Positions 24,895-30,813 of a stretch of DNA of 64,000 bases are shown piece by piece; the stretch's first letter is position 1; each line of letters opens with the position of its first letter. A model generated the notes under the pieces. The model was given only the letters and a program-made list of their open reading frames with translations, was not told where the DNA came from and searched no databases. Source of the DNA: an uncultured Planctomycetota bacterium (GTDB taxonomy: Bacteria; Planctomycetota; SKW154; DAOVDS01); assembly GCA_964641955.1 (NCBI GenBank), contig CAZXNM010000003.1, positions 197,813 to 261,812 of the forward strand, read 5' to 3'. Position numbers and translations under genes: made by a program.

Positions 24895-25077
24895 AGCACC
24901 GAATATAGCCCGCCGCGTTCACATGTCAAGACATGCAAACGCAATACTGCCAAGAAAGTTGAAACACCCGGGCCGGAGTGTTGTTCGGGGTATTCCGGAT
25001 TTGGTTTTGTTTTGACAGAAAGGCGCCCTTGCGGTTAAACTCGCCCTGTCCTTCATCCGGCGCGTAAGAGGTTTTTC

Positions 25078-26637
25078 GTGAGGTTTCTCAAGGCACCCGT
25101 CGTTTTCGCACTTGTTATCCTGTCCCTGTTTGCGGGCTGCACGGGGTCAACGCCAAACTACAAGTTCAAGGTAGAAAAGAACATCTCCCACGTCTATATA
25201 AACAACGATGGGTCCATAGACATCGAATATCACATAACCTTCGAGAACCTGGGCGACCCGATAGACGTGGTTGACATAGGCCTGCCCCACGACGGCTACC
25301 GGCTCGACACGGCGCGGGCGGATGTTAATTCGTTCCCCCTGACGGACATAGACCGTTCGAGCTACATAGCGGTCGGCGTGGAGGTGCAGCTCGGTGAGCA
25401 CGCCATACCGAGGAGTCAGAGCGGCACGCTGAACTTCAGAATCAACAATCCGAAGATGGTCTTTCCCGACACCGAGGATGCGACGTATGCCAGCGTTCAG
25501 TTCTCGCCGACGTGGTTCTATCCCCCGTTCGTCGTCGGGACCACCCGCGTCGAGGTCCACGTCCACTTTCCCCCGGGCGTGAGCGGGAGCGAGACGAAGT
25601 ACCACGCCGTTGCGCCCACGTCCGATACCTATGCCGGCGACAGGCTGATTTTCACGTGGGTGAAAGAAGCCGCCCGCCAGGAAAAAATGATGGTGGGCGT
25701 GTCGTTCCCGAGGAAGTACGTTGACAAGGTATTCGACCCGTCCGAAGTGACCTTTGTCGAATCCATGGAGCCCACGGAGCCTTTCAACTGGGGTGCGCTT
25801 GCAGCCTGGCTGCCTTACATAGTGATTGCGTTCATAGTGATTCTGGGAGCAGTGGGAGGCGCTTTCGCGAACCGCACCAAACGGATGCACTACCTGCCGC
25901 CCGAGACCAGGATAGAAGGGCTCGGACCGTGTAGGAGCCTCGACCCGATAGAGGCGGCCATCGTGCTTGAACTGCCGCTTTCGAGAATCGTGGCGCTGGC
26001 CATGATGCAGCTCATACAGAAGCAGTGCATCGAGGTTAAGCAGGTTCATCCTCTCAGGGTCAATATCCTTGACGAGAACAAGCCGGGGCTTAAGGCCTAC
26101 GAGGAGAGCATATTGAAGGCGCTTGACCCGGCAAAGTACGATGATGAGAAGACAAGGGAAAGGCGACTTCACAACGCCGTGACGAAACTGATAGAGAGCG
26201 TGAGGGACAAGCTTAAAAAAGGCTTTTCCCGGAAAGCGACCGCGGATTTCTACCGCGGGAAGATTGAGCACATGTGGGGCAGAATCGAGCGCGACCCGCA
26301 GCTCGAGCACCTTGCATGGATTGCGCTGAACGATGACTACGTTAAGGAAATTGAGGAAAGTCCGGCCAAGCAGGAGAAGCTCGAACCTTTCTGGCGCGAT
26401 GGATATTACGACTATTTCCCCTCGCGGTACAGGCGGCGCAACATGTACTACATCTTCGATGATTTCGAGGAAGAGATGGTGCCGGACAATACAGGATTCA
26501 CGCACGGCGTCAGCAAGGTCACCAATCCCACGGCGTGGATACAGTCTTCCGGCTGGTCCTCGGGCGGCGGAGGCGGAGGGTCCTGTGCATGTGCGTGCGC
26601 CGGCTGTGCCTGTGCCTGCGCCGGGGGGGGGAGATAG
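25078..26637 (+). CDS. lipoprotein/membrane protein with DUF2207-like architecture and a Gly6-Ser-(Cys-Ala)n C-terminal tail
   Basis: Lipobox LFAGC, extracytoplasmic N-domain, one TM (WLPYIVIAFIVILGAVGGAF), a roughly 250-aa cytoplasmic part ending ...SGWSSGGGGGGSCACACAGCACACAGGGR. GTG start. A TTGACA-N17-TTAAAC candidate promoter lies at 25012-25040. Confidence 0.6.
   Translation: MRFLKAPVVFALVILSLFAGCTGSTPNYKFKVEKNISHVYINNDGSIDIEYHITFENLGDPIDVVDIGLPHDGYRLDTARADVNSFPLTDIDRSSYIAVGVEVQLGEHAIPRSQSGTLNFRINNPKMVFPDTEDATYASVQFSPTWFYPPFVVGTTRVEVHVHFPPGVSGSETKYHAVAPTSDTYAGDRLIFTWVKEAARQEKMMVGVSFPRKYVDKVFDPSEVTFVESMEPTEPFNWGALAAWLPYIVIAFIVILGAVGGAFANRTKRMHYLPPETRIEGLGPCRSLDPIEAAIVLELPLSRIVALAMMQLIQKQCIEVKQVHPLRVNILDENKPGLKAYEESILKALDPAKYDDEKTRERRLHNAVTKLIESVRDKLKKGFSRKATADFYRGKIEHMWGRIERDPQLEHLAWIALNDDYVKEIEESPAKQEKLEPFWRDGYYDYFPSRYRRRNMYYIFDDFEEEMVPDNTGFTHGVSKVTNPTAWIQSSGWSSGGGGGGSCACACAGCACACAGGGR
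26584..26631 (+). repeat. hexanucleotide (TGYGCN)n coding microsatellite followed by a G9 homopolymer at the 3' end of the upstream gene
   Basis: tgtgca tgtgcg tgcgcc ggc tgtgcc tgtgcc tgcgcc at 26584-26622 encodes CACACAGCACACA. Nine consecutive G at 26623-26631, then aga tag. Confidence 0.9.
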
Positions 26638-26651
26638 GCACCGGAGGTAAA

Positions 26652-28001
26652 ATGTCCGTATTCGGTTTCCTGAAGAAAGTCAAACCTCTTGAGAAGGGAA
26701 TATACTCCGCCCGCATCGACGAGCCGGAGGGCAACTACAGGCTTCACCTGCGAATTGAAGAAGACGGAAGCGGGGTCCTGGTGATAAACGCTTCCAGGAT
26801 TCTCCACATGAACCAGACTGCGACGGAATACGCGAAGATGATTATCGACGGTCTCGATGTTGACGAGGCCGCTAAAAAAATGCGTTCGAGATACAGGGTC
26901 AGGTTGGACATCGCCAGAAGGGATTATCAGAAAATCAATGATACCATAAACGCACTCTCGCGCACGGACCTCGTCTGCCCCGTAAGCTATCTCGACGTCG
27001 AGATGATTGAGCCCGACTCCGTCGTCCCCTCCGCACCATATCGCATGGACATCGCGCTTACTTACGAATGCCAGAACAAGTGCGCCCACTGCTACGTCGA
27101 GGAGAAGGAAAGGGGCGAGCCGCTGAGCTTCGAGCAGTGGAAGCAGGCGCTGGACAGGCTGTGGGCGGCGGGGATTCCTCACGTATGCTTCACGGGCGGG
27201 GAGCCGACGCTGCACGAGAACCTGGAAGGGCTGATTGAATACGCCGAGGACATCGGCATCGTGACGGGGCTTATAACGAACGGCAGGAAGCTGGCGGACG
27301 AGGCGTACACGCGCAGGCTGATTGACGCCGGGCTGGACCACGTGCAGATAACACTCGAGAGCCACGATGAGAAGGTGCATGACGAGATGGTCGGCAGTCC
27401 AGGCGCGTGGAAGGAGACTGTCGAAGGCGTGAAGAATGCCGTCAAGCTGCCGCTCTACACGATTACCAATACCACGCTTCTCAGAAACAACGTCGGTGAA
27501 ATCGAGAAGACCGTGGAATTCCTCGCTTCTCTCAACGTCGATGCATTCGCCTGCAACGGCCTTATTTACAGCGGAAAGGGCAGGGAGCACGAAGGCGGAA
27601 TCAGCGAGGAGGAGTTGCCCGGCATCCTCGAACGAGTCAAGGATGCGGCGTCGCTGAACGGGCTGAGATTCATCTGGTACACTCCAACGCGCTACTGCAC
27701 GTTCAACCCGGTGGACGCGGGCCTCGGCATTAAGCAGTGCAGCGCCGCAAAGCTGAACATGTGCATAGAGCCGGACGGCACGGTGCTGCCCTGCCAGTCA
27801 TATTTCGAGTCCGCGGGCAATATCCTGGCGGATTCGTTCGACTCGATATGGAACAGCGACACGAGCAGGACCCTGCGCAACCGCGAGTGGATTGACGATG
27901 AGTGCAGGCAGTGCGAGATGCTGAAGCTCTGCGGGGGCGGGTGCCCCCTGCGCCGGGAAGGCGAATCGTTCATCTGCCGCGATTCCAAGGCCTCCTCGTA
28001 G
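26652..28001 (+). CDS. radical SAM / SPASM-domain peptide-modifying enzyme with N-terminal PqqD-like RiPP recognition element (RRE)
   Basis: CxxxCxxC (CQNKCAHC) about 125 aa from the N-terminus. C-terminal SPASM pattern C(x2)C(x5)C(x3)C (CRQCEMLKLCGGGC). The N-terminal 110 aa (DGSGVLVINASRILHMNQTATEYAKMIIDGLDVDEAAKKM) matches the PqqD/RRE pattern. GGAGG RBS 4 nt before the ATG. Confidence 0.85.
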   Translation: MSVFGFLKKVKPLEKGIYSARIDEPEGNYRLHLRIEEDGSGVLVINASRILHMNQTATEYAKMIIDGLDVDEAAKKMRSRYRVRLDIARRDYQKINDTINALSRTDLVCPVSYLDVEMIEPDSVVPSAPYRMDIALTYECQNKCAHCYVEEKERGEPLSFEQWKQALDRLWAAGIPHVCFTGGEPTLHENLEGLIEYAEDIGIVTGLITNGRKLADEAYTRRLIDAGLDHVQITLESHDEKVHDEMVGSPGAWKETVEGVKNAVKLPLYTITNTTLLRNNVGEIEKTVEFLASLNVDAFACNGLIYSGKGREHEGGISEEELPGILERVKDAASLNGLRFIWYTPTRYCTFNPVDAGLGIKQCSAAKLNMCIEPDGTVLPCQSYFESAGNILADSFDSIWNSDTSRTLRNREWIDDECRQCEMLKLCGGGCPLRREGESFICRDSKASS

Positions 28002-28013
28002 GAAACGTATGGA

Positions 28014-28766
28014 TTGAACACAGGGCAGGCATCCAAACACCTTGAAGAGCTGGAAGCCTACTACGCCGCGCAGGCGAGGTGGACGAAGGCAGCGCGCAGC
28101 TACCTTTACAGGCGCGCGGGCGTGACAAGGGCCCGAAGGATACTCGAGGTCGGGTGCGGTACGGGCGAGATAACGAGCGAACTTGCCCGCAGGGCGAAGG
28201 CGAGCATTACGGCGGTCGATATCGACGGCGCGATGGCGCAGTACACCCGGGAACGCGTGCTTTCGGCAGATGTGATAGCGGCAGATGCGGCGAGCCTCGA
28301 TTTCCCTGACGGCTCGTTTGACGTGGCGGTCTGCCACTTTACCCTGATGTGGTGCAGTGAACCTGCGGCAGTTCTCGTGGAGATGGCGAGGGTTGTGAGG
28401 AAATCGGGGTGCGTAATCGCGCTTTCCGAGCCGGATTACGGGGGTGCGCTGGAGTACCCGGATTCCATGGGATACCTGCGCCTTGTGGCGGAAGGCCTGC
28501 GCCGGCGCGGCGCCGACCCGGAAATCGGGAGGAAACTGTACAACATATTTTCGCAGGCTTCTCTTGAGACGGAAACGGGCCTTGCGAGCACGGTGTGGAC
28601 CGGAGAGTCCTCGAAGGCCGACTTCGAAGCCTGCCGCTGGCTCGTACGGGATGTGGTCGATGAGGAGGAGTTCATCAGAATCAGGAATGCGCACTGTGAT
28701 GCGCTGCCGGTGGAAGGATGTATATGCTTCCTGCCGGTATTCTGGGCCTTCGGGCTCAAGAAGTAG
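28014..28766 (+). CDS. class I SAM-dependent methyltransferase
   Basis: Motif I ILEVGCGTGEIT, motif II/post-I DIDGAMAQ, FDVAVCHFTLMW. TTG start is uncertain. Confidence 0.75.
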   Translation: MNTGQASKHLEELEAYYAAQARWTKAARSYLYRRAGVTRARRILEVGCGTGEITSELARRAKASITAVDIDGAMAQYTRERVLSADVIAADAASLDFPDGSFDVAVCHFTLMWCSEPAAVLVEMARVVRKSGCVIALSEPDYGGALEYPDSMGYLRLVAEGLRRRGADPEIGRKLYNIFSQASLETETGLASTVWTGESSKADFEACRWLVRDVVDEEEFIRIRNAHCDALPVEGCICFLPVFWAFGLKK

Positions 28767-28784
28767 TTTGACAAGGAGGAAGAA

Positions 28785-29783
28785 ATGCCTGAGCTGCGTC
28801 AGAACATGGCCACGAAGGAGTGGGTCATAATCGCGACCGAGAGGGCCAAGAGACCGGACCAGTTCAAGTCCGAGTCGAAATCCGACGAGGAGGTTCCCGA
28901 GTACGACCCGAAGTGCCCGTTCTGTCCCGGCAAGGAGGACAAGACGCCTCCCGAGACGTATCGCATCGATAAGGACGGGAAGTGGCTGGTGCGTTCCTTT
29001 CCCAACAAGTTCGCCGCGCTGCTGCCCGAGGGTGATACCGACAATGCGTTCACCGGCGTGATGCGCAAGATGAACGGCGTGGGCTTCCACGAGGTGATTG
29101 CCGAAACGCCGCTGCACAACCAGCACATGTCGAGCCTGGATATCGACCATTTCGCCAGCGTAATCAAGGTGTATCACCAGCGCTTCAATCACATCGCCGC
29201 CGACCCCCGAATCGAGCAGGTGATAATCTTCAAGAACCACGGTGCCGGCGCGGGCACCTCGCTTGTTCACCCGCATTCGCAGCTTATTGCCCTGCCCGTC
29301 GTGCCCGCTCATATCAGGCATCGCGTCGAGGAGGCGATGCGCTACTTCGACGACCACGGCGAGTGCGTCATGTGCGAGATGATGGAAATGGAGCTGAAAG
29401 AGAAGACGCGCGTGGTCCTTGAGACGGAGCATTTCGTGAGCTTCGTTCCTTACGCAAGCTTTTCTCCTTTTCACGTATGGCTCGTTCCGAAGGAGCATCT
29501 CTCCTGCTTCGGCCACATATCCGAGGATGTGATGCCGGATATGGCGCGCAATCTCAGGAGCGTCCTGCAGAGGCTGTACGTCGGGCTGAACAACCCGGAT
29601 TTCAATCTGGTGGTCAATTCCGCGCCTCTTGACGGCGGCACGCGATACTACCACTGGTATCTTTCCGTGGTTCCCCGCGTAACCAGGACGGCCGGCTTCG
29701 AGCTCGGCTCGGGGATGTTCATCAACACCTCGCTTCCGGAGGCGGGTGCGCAGTACCTGAGGGAACAGGAAGTGGAGGACTGA
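28785..29783 (+). CDS. galT: galactose-1-phosphate uridylyltransferase-family (GalT-type HIT) nucleotidyltransferase
   Basis: Zn site KCPFCPG plus the HxHxQ active site (HPHSQLIAL), about 330 aa. AGGAGGA RBS. Substrate specificity not inferable. Confidence 0.75.
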   Translation: MPELRQNMATKEWVIIATERAKRPDQFKSESKSDEEVPEYDPKCPFCPGKEDKTPPETYRIDKDGKWLVRSFPNKFAALLPEGDTDNAFTGVMRKMNGVGFHEVIAETPLHNQHMSSLDIDHFASVIKVYHQRFNHIAADPRIEQVIIFKNHGAGAGTSLVHPHSQLIALPVVPAHIRHRVEEAMRYFDDHGECVMCEMMEMELKEKTRVVLETEHFVSFVPYASFSPFHVWLVPKEHLSCFGHISEDVMPDMARNLRSVLQRLYVGLNNPDFNLVVNSAPLDGGTRYYHWYLSVVPRVTRTAGFELGSGMFINTSLPEAGAQYLREQEVED

Positions 29784-29790
29784 AAAGGGG

Positions 29791-30813
29791 ATGAAGAACC
29801 GCATCCTCAGGAGGGCTCAGCTATTCGGGCGCGCCCTGGCATGCGCCGCAAGGTCGCGTCTCCTGACGCACCGCCCGTTCACCCTGTCGCACAGGATAAC
29901 CGGGCGGTGCAACGCCCGATGCGAGACTTGCCTGTGGAGGGGCAGGTTCGAGGAGGAAGCCGGTACCGACCGGATTGTCGAGGCTTACGAGCGCGCACGT
30001 GATGCGGGTTTCATATCGACGACATTCTGGGGCGGCGAGCCGCTGCTGCGCGCCGATATGCCGGAAATCGCGCGCCGCGTCCGCGGCCTTGGCCTGACGG
30101 TGGGGCTCATCACGAACGGCTATTATCTTCCCGAGAAGGCGCGGGAGCTTTCTGGCGCCCTCGACTATATCATTGTATCGCTGGATGTGCCGAATCCCGG
30201 GCACGACAGGCTGAGAGGGGTAGAGGGCATCTTCGACAGGGCGGTCGAGGGGATGCGCGTTCTTAGGAGCTTCGACCCGACGGTCAAGATTTTCATCAAC
30301 TCGGTCGTCAGCAGGTTGTCCTATCCGGCGGTGCCCGGGATGGCCGACTTCGCCCGCAGACTCGGCCTTTCCGTGACGTTCGAGTCCACGAACACGGGCG
30401 TGACTCTCGACGGGACGCGCAATGTGCAGTTGAGGCTGCCGCCCGACATTGAGCGGGAGGCTTTCGACAGGATACTGGCGATGAAGATGCGCGGCCTGCC
30501 CGTCAACAACTCGTCCACGTATCTCCGGATGTTCGCGACCGGGCGCACGCGCTACGCCTGCCAGAATCCGAAAGTGGCCCTTGGCGTCGGACCGGACGGC
30601 ACAATCACCGCCTGTCTCGACAGGCCGGTTTCCCTGGGCAACTTCTACAGCGACAGCCTGGTGGAGATTTTGGACAGTTCGATTCTCATGGATATGCAGG
30701 CGAGAGCGGAGAACTGCTGGCTCTGCGTGGACAGCGGGACAATCGAAACCTCGCTCTTCTGGCAGTTCAGGCGGGAGGTGGTCTTGAGCACGCTGAGGTT
30801 ATTCTTGAAATGA
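29791..30813 (+). CDS. radical SAM protein (MoaA/NifB/PqqE-like, with C-terminal twitch/SPASM-like Cys cluster)
   Basis: ITGRCNARCETC (CxxxCxxC), GGEPLL glycine-rich SAM motif, C-terminal C...C...CWLC. Confidence 0.8.
   Translation: MKNRILRRAQLFGRALACAARSRLLTHRPFTLSHRITGRCNARCETCLWRGRFEEEAGTDRIVEAYERARDAGFISTTFWGGEPLLRADMPEIARRVRGLGLTVGLITNGYYLPEKARELSGALDYIIVSLDVPNPGHDRLRGVEGIFDRAVEGMRVLRSFDPTVKIFINSVVSRLSYPAVPGMADFARRLGLSVTFESTNTGVTLDGTRNVQLRLPPDIEREAFDRILAMKMRGLPVNNSSTYLRMFATGRTRYACQNPKVALGVGPDGTITACLDRPVSLGNFYSDSLVEILDSSILMDMQARAENCWLCVDSGTIETSLFWQFRREVVLSTLRLFLK

Follow-up and report, generated by a model that had tools for sequence, protein, structure and literature searches.

Two genes and the junction between them

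The window analyzed here, a whole stretch of 64,000 nucleotides (nt) of contig CAZXNM010000003.1 from an uncultured Planctomycetota bacterium, carries on its plus strand a gene for a 519-amino-acid membrane protein with a cysteine-rich C terminus (25078..26637; hereafter the tail protein), followed by a gene for a 449-amino-acid radical SAM (S-adenosylmethionine)/SPASM enzyme (26652..28001; ATG start at 26652), as assigned from its open reading frame (ORF) and Pfam matches. A sequence-only reading of this DNA had singled out the junction between them, where a hexanucleotide coding repeat runs into nine consecutive G residues (G9), and proposed that one extra G would fuse the tail protein to the enzyme. 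It offered three explanations. The DNA could hold two genes, with GGAGG as a ribosome-binding site; the two could form a fusion that is phase variable or made by programmed frameshifting; or a homopolymer sequencing error could have split one fusion gene.

The repeat, read directly and with Tandem Repeats Finder, is a 21-nt unit, (TGYGCN)3-GGN, present twice (26584..26625) and encoding CACACAG-CACACAG. Its first TGYGCN block, TGTGCA TGTGCG TGCGCC (26584-26601), is separated by GGC (26602-26604) from the second, TGTGCC TGTGCC TGCGCC (26605-26622). The G9 homopolymer (26623-26631), flanked by C and A, provides three GGG glycine codons and is followed by the arginine codon AGA (26632-26634) and the stop codon TAG (26635-26637), both of which belong to the conserved end of the protein. 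The C terminus of the tail protein, translated from 25078-26637, thus reads ...SSGWSSGGGGGGS-CACACAG-CACACAG-GGR. A 14-nt intergenic spacer (26638..26651) contains the Shine-Dalgarno (SD) sequence GGAGG (26643-26647), its sole element conserved in the four closest relatives (L001 to L004).

The TGYGCN units, G9, GGAGG, and ATG were all found where the sequence-only reading had placed them, but three of its details needed correction. There are six TGYGCN units, as it said; they do not form one near-perfect, continuous array, since GGC splits them 3+3, and Tandem Repeats Finder found 71% matches and 15% indels for period 6 (score 33), versus 90% matches over two copies for period 21. The stop codon does not directly follow G9, because the AGA codon sits between them. 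Insertion of one G in silico (G10) does join both ORFs; the resulting peptide is ...CACAGGG-EIGTGGK-MSVFGF..., with one glycine fewer than had been written, and the junction peptide of the predicted fusion is ...CACAGGGEIGTGGK. Deletion of one G (G8) yields ...CACAGGGDRHRR*, with the enzyme gene remaining separate. The frame running from 26535 to 28001, cited as a sign of fusion, is indeed an open one, but it is uninformative on this point because none of the forward frames of TGYGCN can contain a stop: the other two read GYG-CNT or YGC-NTG, in which a stop is impossible.

Upstream of the tail-protein gene lies a σ70-like promoter, TTGACA-18 nt-TAAACT (25012..25041; 10 of 12 positions match in a consensus scan), followed by AAGAGG and the GTG start of the gene; both the hexamers and their spacing are conserved in L001 to L004. 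The scan yielded no promoter-like or terminator-like site between the tail-protein and enzyme genes. We consider it very probable that these are two ordinary genes, transcribed together and translated separately, and that G9 arose by chance. One promoter would drive both genes; translation of the membrane protein would end at TAG (26635-26637), and ribosomes would restart 14 nt on, at ATG 26652 via GGAGG (26643-26647), so that the PqqD-type radical SAM/SPASM enzyme is a product of its own.

Conservation of the tail and of the split architecture

We detected 162 homologues of the tail protein, of which the best 120 are considered here. At the DNA level, we read junctions from close relatives (L001 to L004, L104, and L105), from L106/L107 (43% identity), and from 80 species-level genomes found by their tail pattern; that scan gave at least 598 matching stretches, and 303 of these are confirmed relatives. 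The resulting DNA-level set comprises 84 tails from 83 loci, plus L058, L079, and L104 to L107.

About 115 of the 120 best homologues, which are 28 to 92% identical to the window protein, end in ...CACACAG-CACACAG-GGR; the few that do not are all partial or truncated calls. Bearers of the tail include Anaerolineae and other Chloroflexota, deltaproteobacteria, Acidobacteriota, Edwardsbacteria, and Fermentibacterales, among others. The last 17 columns of a 42-sequence alignment show no variation, against a mean column identity of 39%. A stop codon immediately follows GGGR in every family tail read at the DNA level except that of L101, whose C terminus is ...CACACAGGGA-stop (GGG GGG GGA GCC TGA), i.e., GGGA; this is the only deviation from a terminal arginine that we saw. 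All six arginine codons and all three stop codons are used at the end of these tails. Likewise, synonymous Cys, Ala, and Gly codons all occur at every position of the 84 tails, while the peptide is invariant, and therefore selection appears to act on the peptide and its free C terminus rather than on a DNA repeat. The hexanucleotide periodicity is a by-product of coding for alternating Cys and Ala.

The number of Cys-Ala units varies in the first block only (3 units in 12 of the 84 tails, 4 in 59, and 5 in 13); rare block forms are 2+4, 3+4, and 6+0. The suggestion that repeat-number changes would vary the Cys-Ala count is therefore borne out over long evolutionary distances, with two to six units in the first block across phyla, but not in the window clade, where 3+3 is fixed. 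We also considered, and rejected, the idea that the repeat is a hypervariable microsatellite, since its copies are not perfect, GGC interrupts them, and the 3+3 count does not vary in the clade.

Three side observations on the tail deserve mention. One Anaerolineaceae locus (L029) has two tail-encoding gene ends ∼2.1 kb apart (39-104 and 2207-2266, with 5+3 and 4+3 units), only the second of which has an enzyme gene after it; this arrangement suggests tandem paralogues. L093, L095, and L097 belong to another protein family with a similar but longer tail, ...GGGGFGG-x-SSCACACVSCACACACAGGGGAGC-DRK..CPxC..., that runs on into a zinc-ribbon-like CPxC. Finally, L063, on contig JAUWRB010000123.1 and labeled a Promethearchaeota archaeon metagenome-assembled genome, carries the complete cassette, with GGAGGT and a spacer rich in AT; the presence of this cassette in an Asgard archaeon bin could be due to horizontal transfer or a binning error.

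Every orthologous locus that we compared is split. The homologues of the tail protein are 513 to 611 amino acids long, plus one of 774, and none of the 120 best is fused to an enzyme. Conversely, none of the 120 enzyme homologues considered (median, 455 amino acids; full-length ones, 444 to 533) contains the tail, and we found no fusion protein among these 240 homologues or the >90 related DNA loci. Split genes with an intact ribosome-binding site across relatives, which the sequence-only reading had listed among the findings that would speak for plain separate genes, support the first of the three explanations over the other two. By tblastn, the enzyme gene lies directly downstream of the tail gene for 70 of the 84 tails, most of the others being at contig ends.

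The geometry of the junction is far less constant than the tail. In L001 to L004, the spacer is 14 nt, and positions outside GGAGG vary freely, encoding unrelated residues in the enzyme frame; we rejected the idea that the spacer is a conserved linker peptide, as its conservation is limited to the GGAGG nucleotides in the close clade. The spacer of L104 is 23 nt long and includes an in-frame TAG; that of L105, at 19 nt, shifts the enzyme gene to a different phase; and L106 has no spacer at all (0 nt), its two genes being in the same frame with a stop between them. At more distant loci, the stop-to-start arrangement ranges from overlap (ATGA, TAATG) to ∼150 nt, and over the 70 loci in which the enzyme gene directly follows, its three phases relative to the tail gene occur 29:25:16.

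Some enzyme homologues are longer, up to 533 amino acids, either because they have their own N-terminal membrane segment or because the call is over-extended in an alternate frame into the repeat. Such over-extension occurs because the alternate frame of the repeat cannot hold stops, and it is evident in gene calls P0121, P0141, P0227, and P0238, which begin with false N termini of the type VRVRVR(W)..., LCLCLRL..., or MRLCLRV...; the counterpart in the window is 26535-26651.

Is the G9 run more than chance?

G9 is the sole homopolymer of at least 8 bases in the 64-kb window, for which ∼1.1 G runs of at least 9 are expected from base composition alone. (The plus strand of the whole window has five G runs of at least 6 bases and no C run of that length.) In seven local genes, GGG makes up 22% of Gly codons, which gives a probability of 0.011 for three consecutive GGG codons; the observed frequency among related tails is 1 of 84, the window being the only one with three GGG codons. 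The longest G run at the tail end is 2 in 33 loci, 3 in 31, 5 in 11, 6 in 8, and 9 in the window. The corresponding Gly codons of close relatives are GGC GGG GGG, GGA GGC GGG, GGT GGC GGG, GGC GGA GGG, GGC GGC GGA, and GGC GGC GGG, so that the run is interrupted by GGC, GGA, or GGT in relatives at 92, 85, 79, 62, 59, and 59% identity. The G9 run is real but is no more than chance would give. Judged from these comparisons, it appears to be a synonymous accident of three conserved Gly codons, without a selected role.

Long G runs do occur at the tail end elsewhere. A metagenome scan for (TGYGCN)3 followed by at least 8 G found 19 contigs, 9 of them family members. The nine have runs of 8 to 10 G (counting the G of the preceding GCG), all in frame; eight end in GGGR-stop and one, L101, in GGGA-stop. 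There was no frameshifted allele among these nine loci, a small sample.

Phase variation, recoding, and sequencing error

The junction could instead be a phase-variable contingency tract, at which slipped-strand mispairing of G9 during replication toggles the locus among a two-protein state (G9), a 974-amino-acid membrane-anchored substrate-enzyme fusion (G10), and a state in which the tail ends in GGGDRHRR and the enzyme stays separate (G8). Poly-G/C phase variation occurs at homopolymeric-tract contingency loci in, for example, Neisseria, Haemophilus, and Campylobacter, and such tracts are normally kept among close strains. The window resembles these loci in having nine G residues inside a coding region, where a change of one base shifts the frame; by analogy, nine residues are enough for slippage, one continuous ORF results with G10, and the fusable geometry is common to all five loci with at least 9 G. 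It differs from them in that the tract is not kept in relatives at 92 to 59% identity: it is missing from the close relatives read at the DNA level and from 83 of the 84 tails. Moreover, this genomic window is not rich in tracts, G9 being its only long homopolymer; both shifted states destroy a C terminus that is invariant across phyla; and neither length variants nor out-of-frame alleles were seen in the ten long-run loci (the window and the nine from metagenomes). We therefore regard phase variation as very unlikely.

A second possibility is programmed recoding, either by a shift of ribosomes into the −1 frame at G GGG GGG or by transcriptional slippage on the G run, which would make a minor tail-enzyme fusion beside the two separate proteins. 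As in −1 frameshifting of the dnaX and insertion sequence element type, the heptamer G GGG GGG formally fits the slippery pattern X XXY YYZ, and an open path in the −1 phase leads to the enzyme ORF. Unlike those systems, the window has no hairpin or pseudoknot after the run (folding of 26623-26720, z = −0.69; 47 of 200 shuffled sequences fold as well) and, in its sequence, no SD-like element upstream of it; the only GGAGG lies downstream and serves the next start. Relatives keep neither the slippery site nor the frame relation, as the in-frame TAG of L104, the other phase of L105, and the shared frame plus stop of L106 illustrate, and a protein of the fused type is absent from the 240 homologues. 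Programmed recoding thus seems highly improbable, on a par with phase variation. Taken together as the second explanation of the sequence-only reading, both lack comparative support: run, spacer length, and frame relation are not conserved even at 59 to 92% identity, and no stimulatory RNA structure follows the run.

The third explanation, in which the true sequence is G10 and encodes one fusion protein, draws on the facts that homopolymers are error-prone on some platforms and that one extra G joins the frames, but we consider it refuted for practical purposes: no relative is fused, the enzyme Met aligns with the N termini of homologues and has the conserved GGAGG ahead of it, and the G9 of the assembly is evidently correct because only G9 reproduces the GGGR-stop C terminus that is invariant in the family.

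Several points nevertheless weigh against reading the locus as two ordinary genes whose G run is accidental. In all five loci with at least 9 G (the window, L085, L086, L090, and L098), the enzyme gene lies in the −1 phase without an intervening stop, compared to a background of 29 of 80 (36%). L086, L090, and L098 resemble one clade, judged by eye from their similar enzyme N termini rather than from a tree; this leaves approximately three independent lineages, one of them the window as the discovery case, hence roughly two confirmations that are independent, and a P value of ∼0.13 for the association of long runs with the −1 phase. The association is not significant and amounts to a weak hint; a role for such runs of at least 9 G as −1 slippage sites that yield a fusion of substrate and enzyme would be an addition to the maturation system proposed below, and a much less likely one than that system itself. 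In addition, a G9 run is intrinsically slippage-prone, and low-level length heterogeneity may exist in the window population. Lastly, the relationship of substrate and enzyme proposed below for the two separate products is drawn from gene adjacency and from analogy.

With two separate genes as the preferred reading, the locus should be annotated as such, and G9 should not be "corrected." A more general caution for annotation is that automatic calls of the enzyme gene often start too far upstream, in the alternate frame of the Cys-Ala repeat. The junction itself is of low interest; the tail and its enzyme are a separate and better lead.

Architecture of the tail protein

Hydropathy and an AlphaFold2 model (mean predicted local distance difference test score, 80.9) indicate that the tail protein begins with a signal or lipoprotein-like segment. 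This is followed by an extracytoplasmic β-sandwich (residues 30 to 211, modeled with confidence), a single transmembrane helix at residues ∼238 to 269 with NRTKRMH after it, a winged-helix-like unit plus helical bundle (residues 290 to 482), and a Ser/Gly linker leading to the tail; residues 485 to 519 are disordered in the model. By structure comparison, the β-sandwich is similar to two known domains, the luminal one of ribophorin I/OST1 and the N domain of M1 aminopeptidases. On the basis of the positive-inside rule and the structure model, the C-terminal side of the protein is predicted to be cytoplasmic, a placement that would fit the compartment in which radical SAM enzymes work.

Matches to described families fall below threshold: TIGR04222 scores 35.2 bits versus a cutoff of 43, over residues 247 to 380 only, and DUF2207_C scores 19.9 bits versus a cutoff of 33. 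The protein shares with DUF2207/BatD-like membrane proteins an extracytoplasmic N-terminal β-sandwich, a transmembrane helix, and a Gly-rich C terminus, and some of its homologues bear the name DUF2207 or BatD in their source records; it differs in that its own match to DUF2207_C is subthreshold. To our knowledge, an invariant Cys-Ala tail and a linked radical SAM enzyme are not features of the DUF2207 family.

Some 20 to 35 residues before the tail, and separated from it by the Ser/Gly linker, is a nearly invariant T-N-P (T482-N483-P484; 26521-26529) within the conserved motif F-T-x-G-V-T-x-V-T-N-P-x-P. We infer that the enzyme, through its PqqD-type domain, may recognize this motif, which would make it a leader-like element.

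The radical SAM/SPASM enzyme and its gene neighborhood

The enzyme matches Pfam Radical_SAM (PF04055; 1.3e-26) and SPASM (PF13186; 1.7e-10), and its CQNKCAHC motif provides the CxxxCxxC core. A PqqD match (PF05402) in the window enzyme reaches 19.1 bits versus a cutoff of 23.4; precomputed PF05402 matches are present in many homologues at 53 to 57% identity. Homologue clusters number >5,700 at an E value of <1e-60, and the enzyme scores far under the curated cutoff of every NCBIfam family. Its closest solved relatives, SkfB, PqqE, SuiB, and CteB, all modify peptides.

The third gene of the cassette encodes a class I SAM-dependent methyltransferase (28014..28766; Pfam Methyltransf_11, 7.7e-24). 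Clustering of the genes around the tail recovered the enzyme in 65 of 83 loci, a methyltransferase homologue of ∼250 amino acids in 36, and, after the first enzyme, a second, paralogous radical SAM enzyme (∼385 amino acids, ∼33% identical to the first) in 37. In L028, L029, L044, L053, and 32 other genome loci, a second radical SAM gene lies ∼1.1 to 4.2 kb past the stop of the tail gene. In the window, the second radical SAM gene is a different one and lies further downstream: region 28014-30813 encodes the methyltransferase, a nucleotidyltransferase-like protein of the GalT/HIT family, and another radical SAM/SPASM protein, which resembles PTO1314/GeoRSP. The order of tail, radical SAM, methyltransferase, and GalT/HIT-like genes is kept in L106/L107 (8919-11280), where a DUF2284 gene comes next. 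We found no MNIO (DUF692) match in the four downstream window genes scanned (radical SAM, methyltransferase, GalT/HIT-like, and second radical SAM).

In 46 of 83 loci, the gene directly upstream encodes a protein of ∼130 amino acids with two transmembrane helices, a CxxC...CPYC zinc ribbon, and the C-terminal sequence EEPKW; in L005, for example, it occupies the positions from 2049 to 1678 bases before the stop of the tail gene. We rejected this zinc-ribbon membrane protein as a part of the window locus, as it is absent from the window and from L001 to L004. The window also contains two antisense ORFs that overlap the real genes, one of 452 amino acids (25147-26505, minus strand) and one of 668 (27798-29804, minus strand); both are most likely GC-driven artifacts.

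A proposed tail-maturation system

The tail system is present in at least 303 species-level genomes from several phyla. Judged from sequence, the invariant tail, the PqqD-type radical SAM/SPASM enzyme, and the methyltransferase appear to form a widespread system, for which no specific Pfam or NCBIfam family was reached at the curated cutoff; our literature search found no paper on the tail motif or on its pairing with a radical SAM enzyme.

Gene adjacency and analogy to known maturases suggest that the tail is a substrate of the adjacent enzyme, in a maturation like that of ribosomally synthesized and posttranslationally modified peptides (RiPPs) but acting on a full-length protein. In its fuller form, the proposal is that the adjacent PqqD-type radical SAM/SPASM enzyme acts in the cytoplasm to modify the invariant (CA)n-G-CACACAG-GGR tail of a 520- to 570-amino-acid membrane protein, often with participation of the second radical SAM paralogue and the methyltransferase, and that this is a maturation system not described previously; we would put the chances that this is right at about even. 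As for the chemistry, our guess, by analogy to the nearest characterized enzymes and given the adjacent methyltransferase, is that thioether cross-links would be formed and methylation would follow.

The parallels to radical SAM/SPASM RiPP maturases (SkfB, CteB, PqqE, and SuiB; sactipeptides and ranthipeptides) are the CxxxCxxC core, the SPASM domain, and, with a match below the cutoff in the window enzyme, a possible PqqD-like N terminus, as well as an enzyme gene that adjoins a gene ending in a conserved, Cys-rich peptide predicted to be disordered. The putative precursor has the layout of a RiPP precursor, i.e., recognition element, linker, and core; unlike one, it is not a short peptide but the C-terminal 17 to 19 residues of a 520- to 570-amino-acid membrane protein, to which this layout is appended.

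Another parallel is offered by a 2025 survey (PMC12452194) of TIGR04222 membrane proteins with unstructured, Ser/Gly-rich, Cys-containing C-terminal tails; the survey predicts these tails to be periplasmic and proposes the proteins to be substrates of MNIO enzymes. The two systems have in common a membrane protein with a winged-helix-like domain after the transmembrane helix, a Ser/Gly-rich, disordered, Cys-bearing C terminus, a neighboring peptide-modifying enzyme, and a bona fide protein as the precursor. They differ in that the window protein scores below the TIGR04222 cutoff and is paired with a radical SAM/SPASM enzyme in place of an MNIO (DUF692) enzyme; in addition, the window tail is invariant and predicted to be cytoplasmic, whereas TIGR04222 tails are of low complexity, variable, and predicted to be periplasmic.

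What makes this family stand out is a 17-residue C terminus that is conserved letter for letter in proteins otherwise only ∼30% identical (28 to 40% among the homologues considered), with a radical SAM/SPASM gene almost always next to it. If the tail is indeed the substrate of that enzyme, the family would offer a clean substrate-enzyme pair open to testing, and RiPP-style chemistry would extend to a full-length membrane protein, paralleling the proposed pairs of MNIO enzymes and TIGR04222 proteins.

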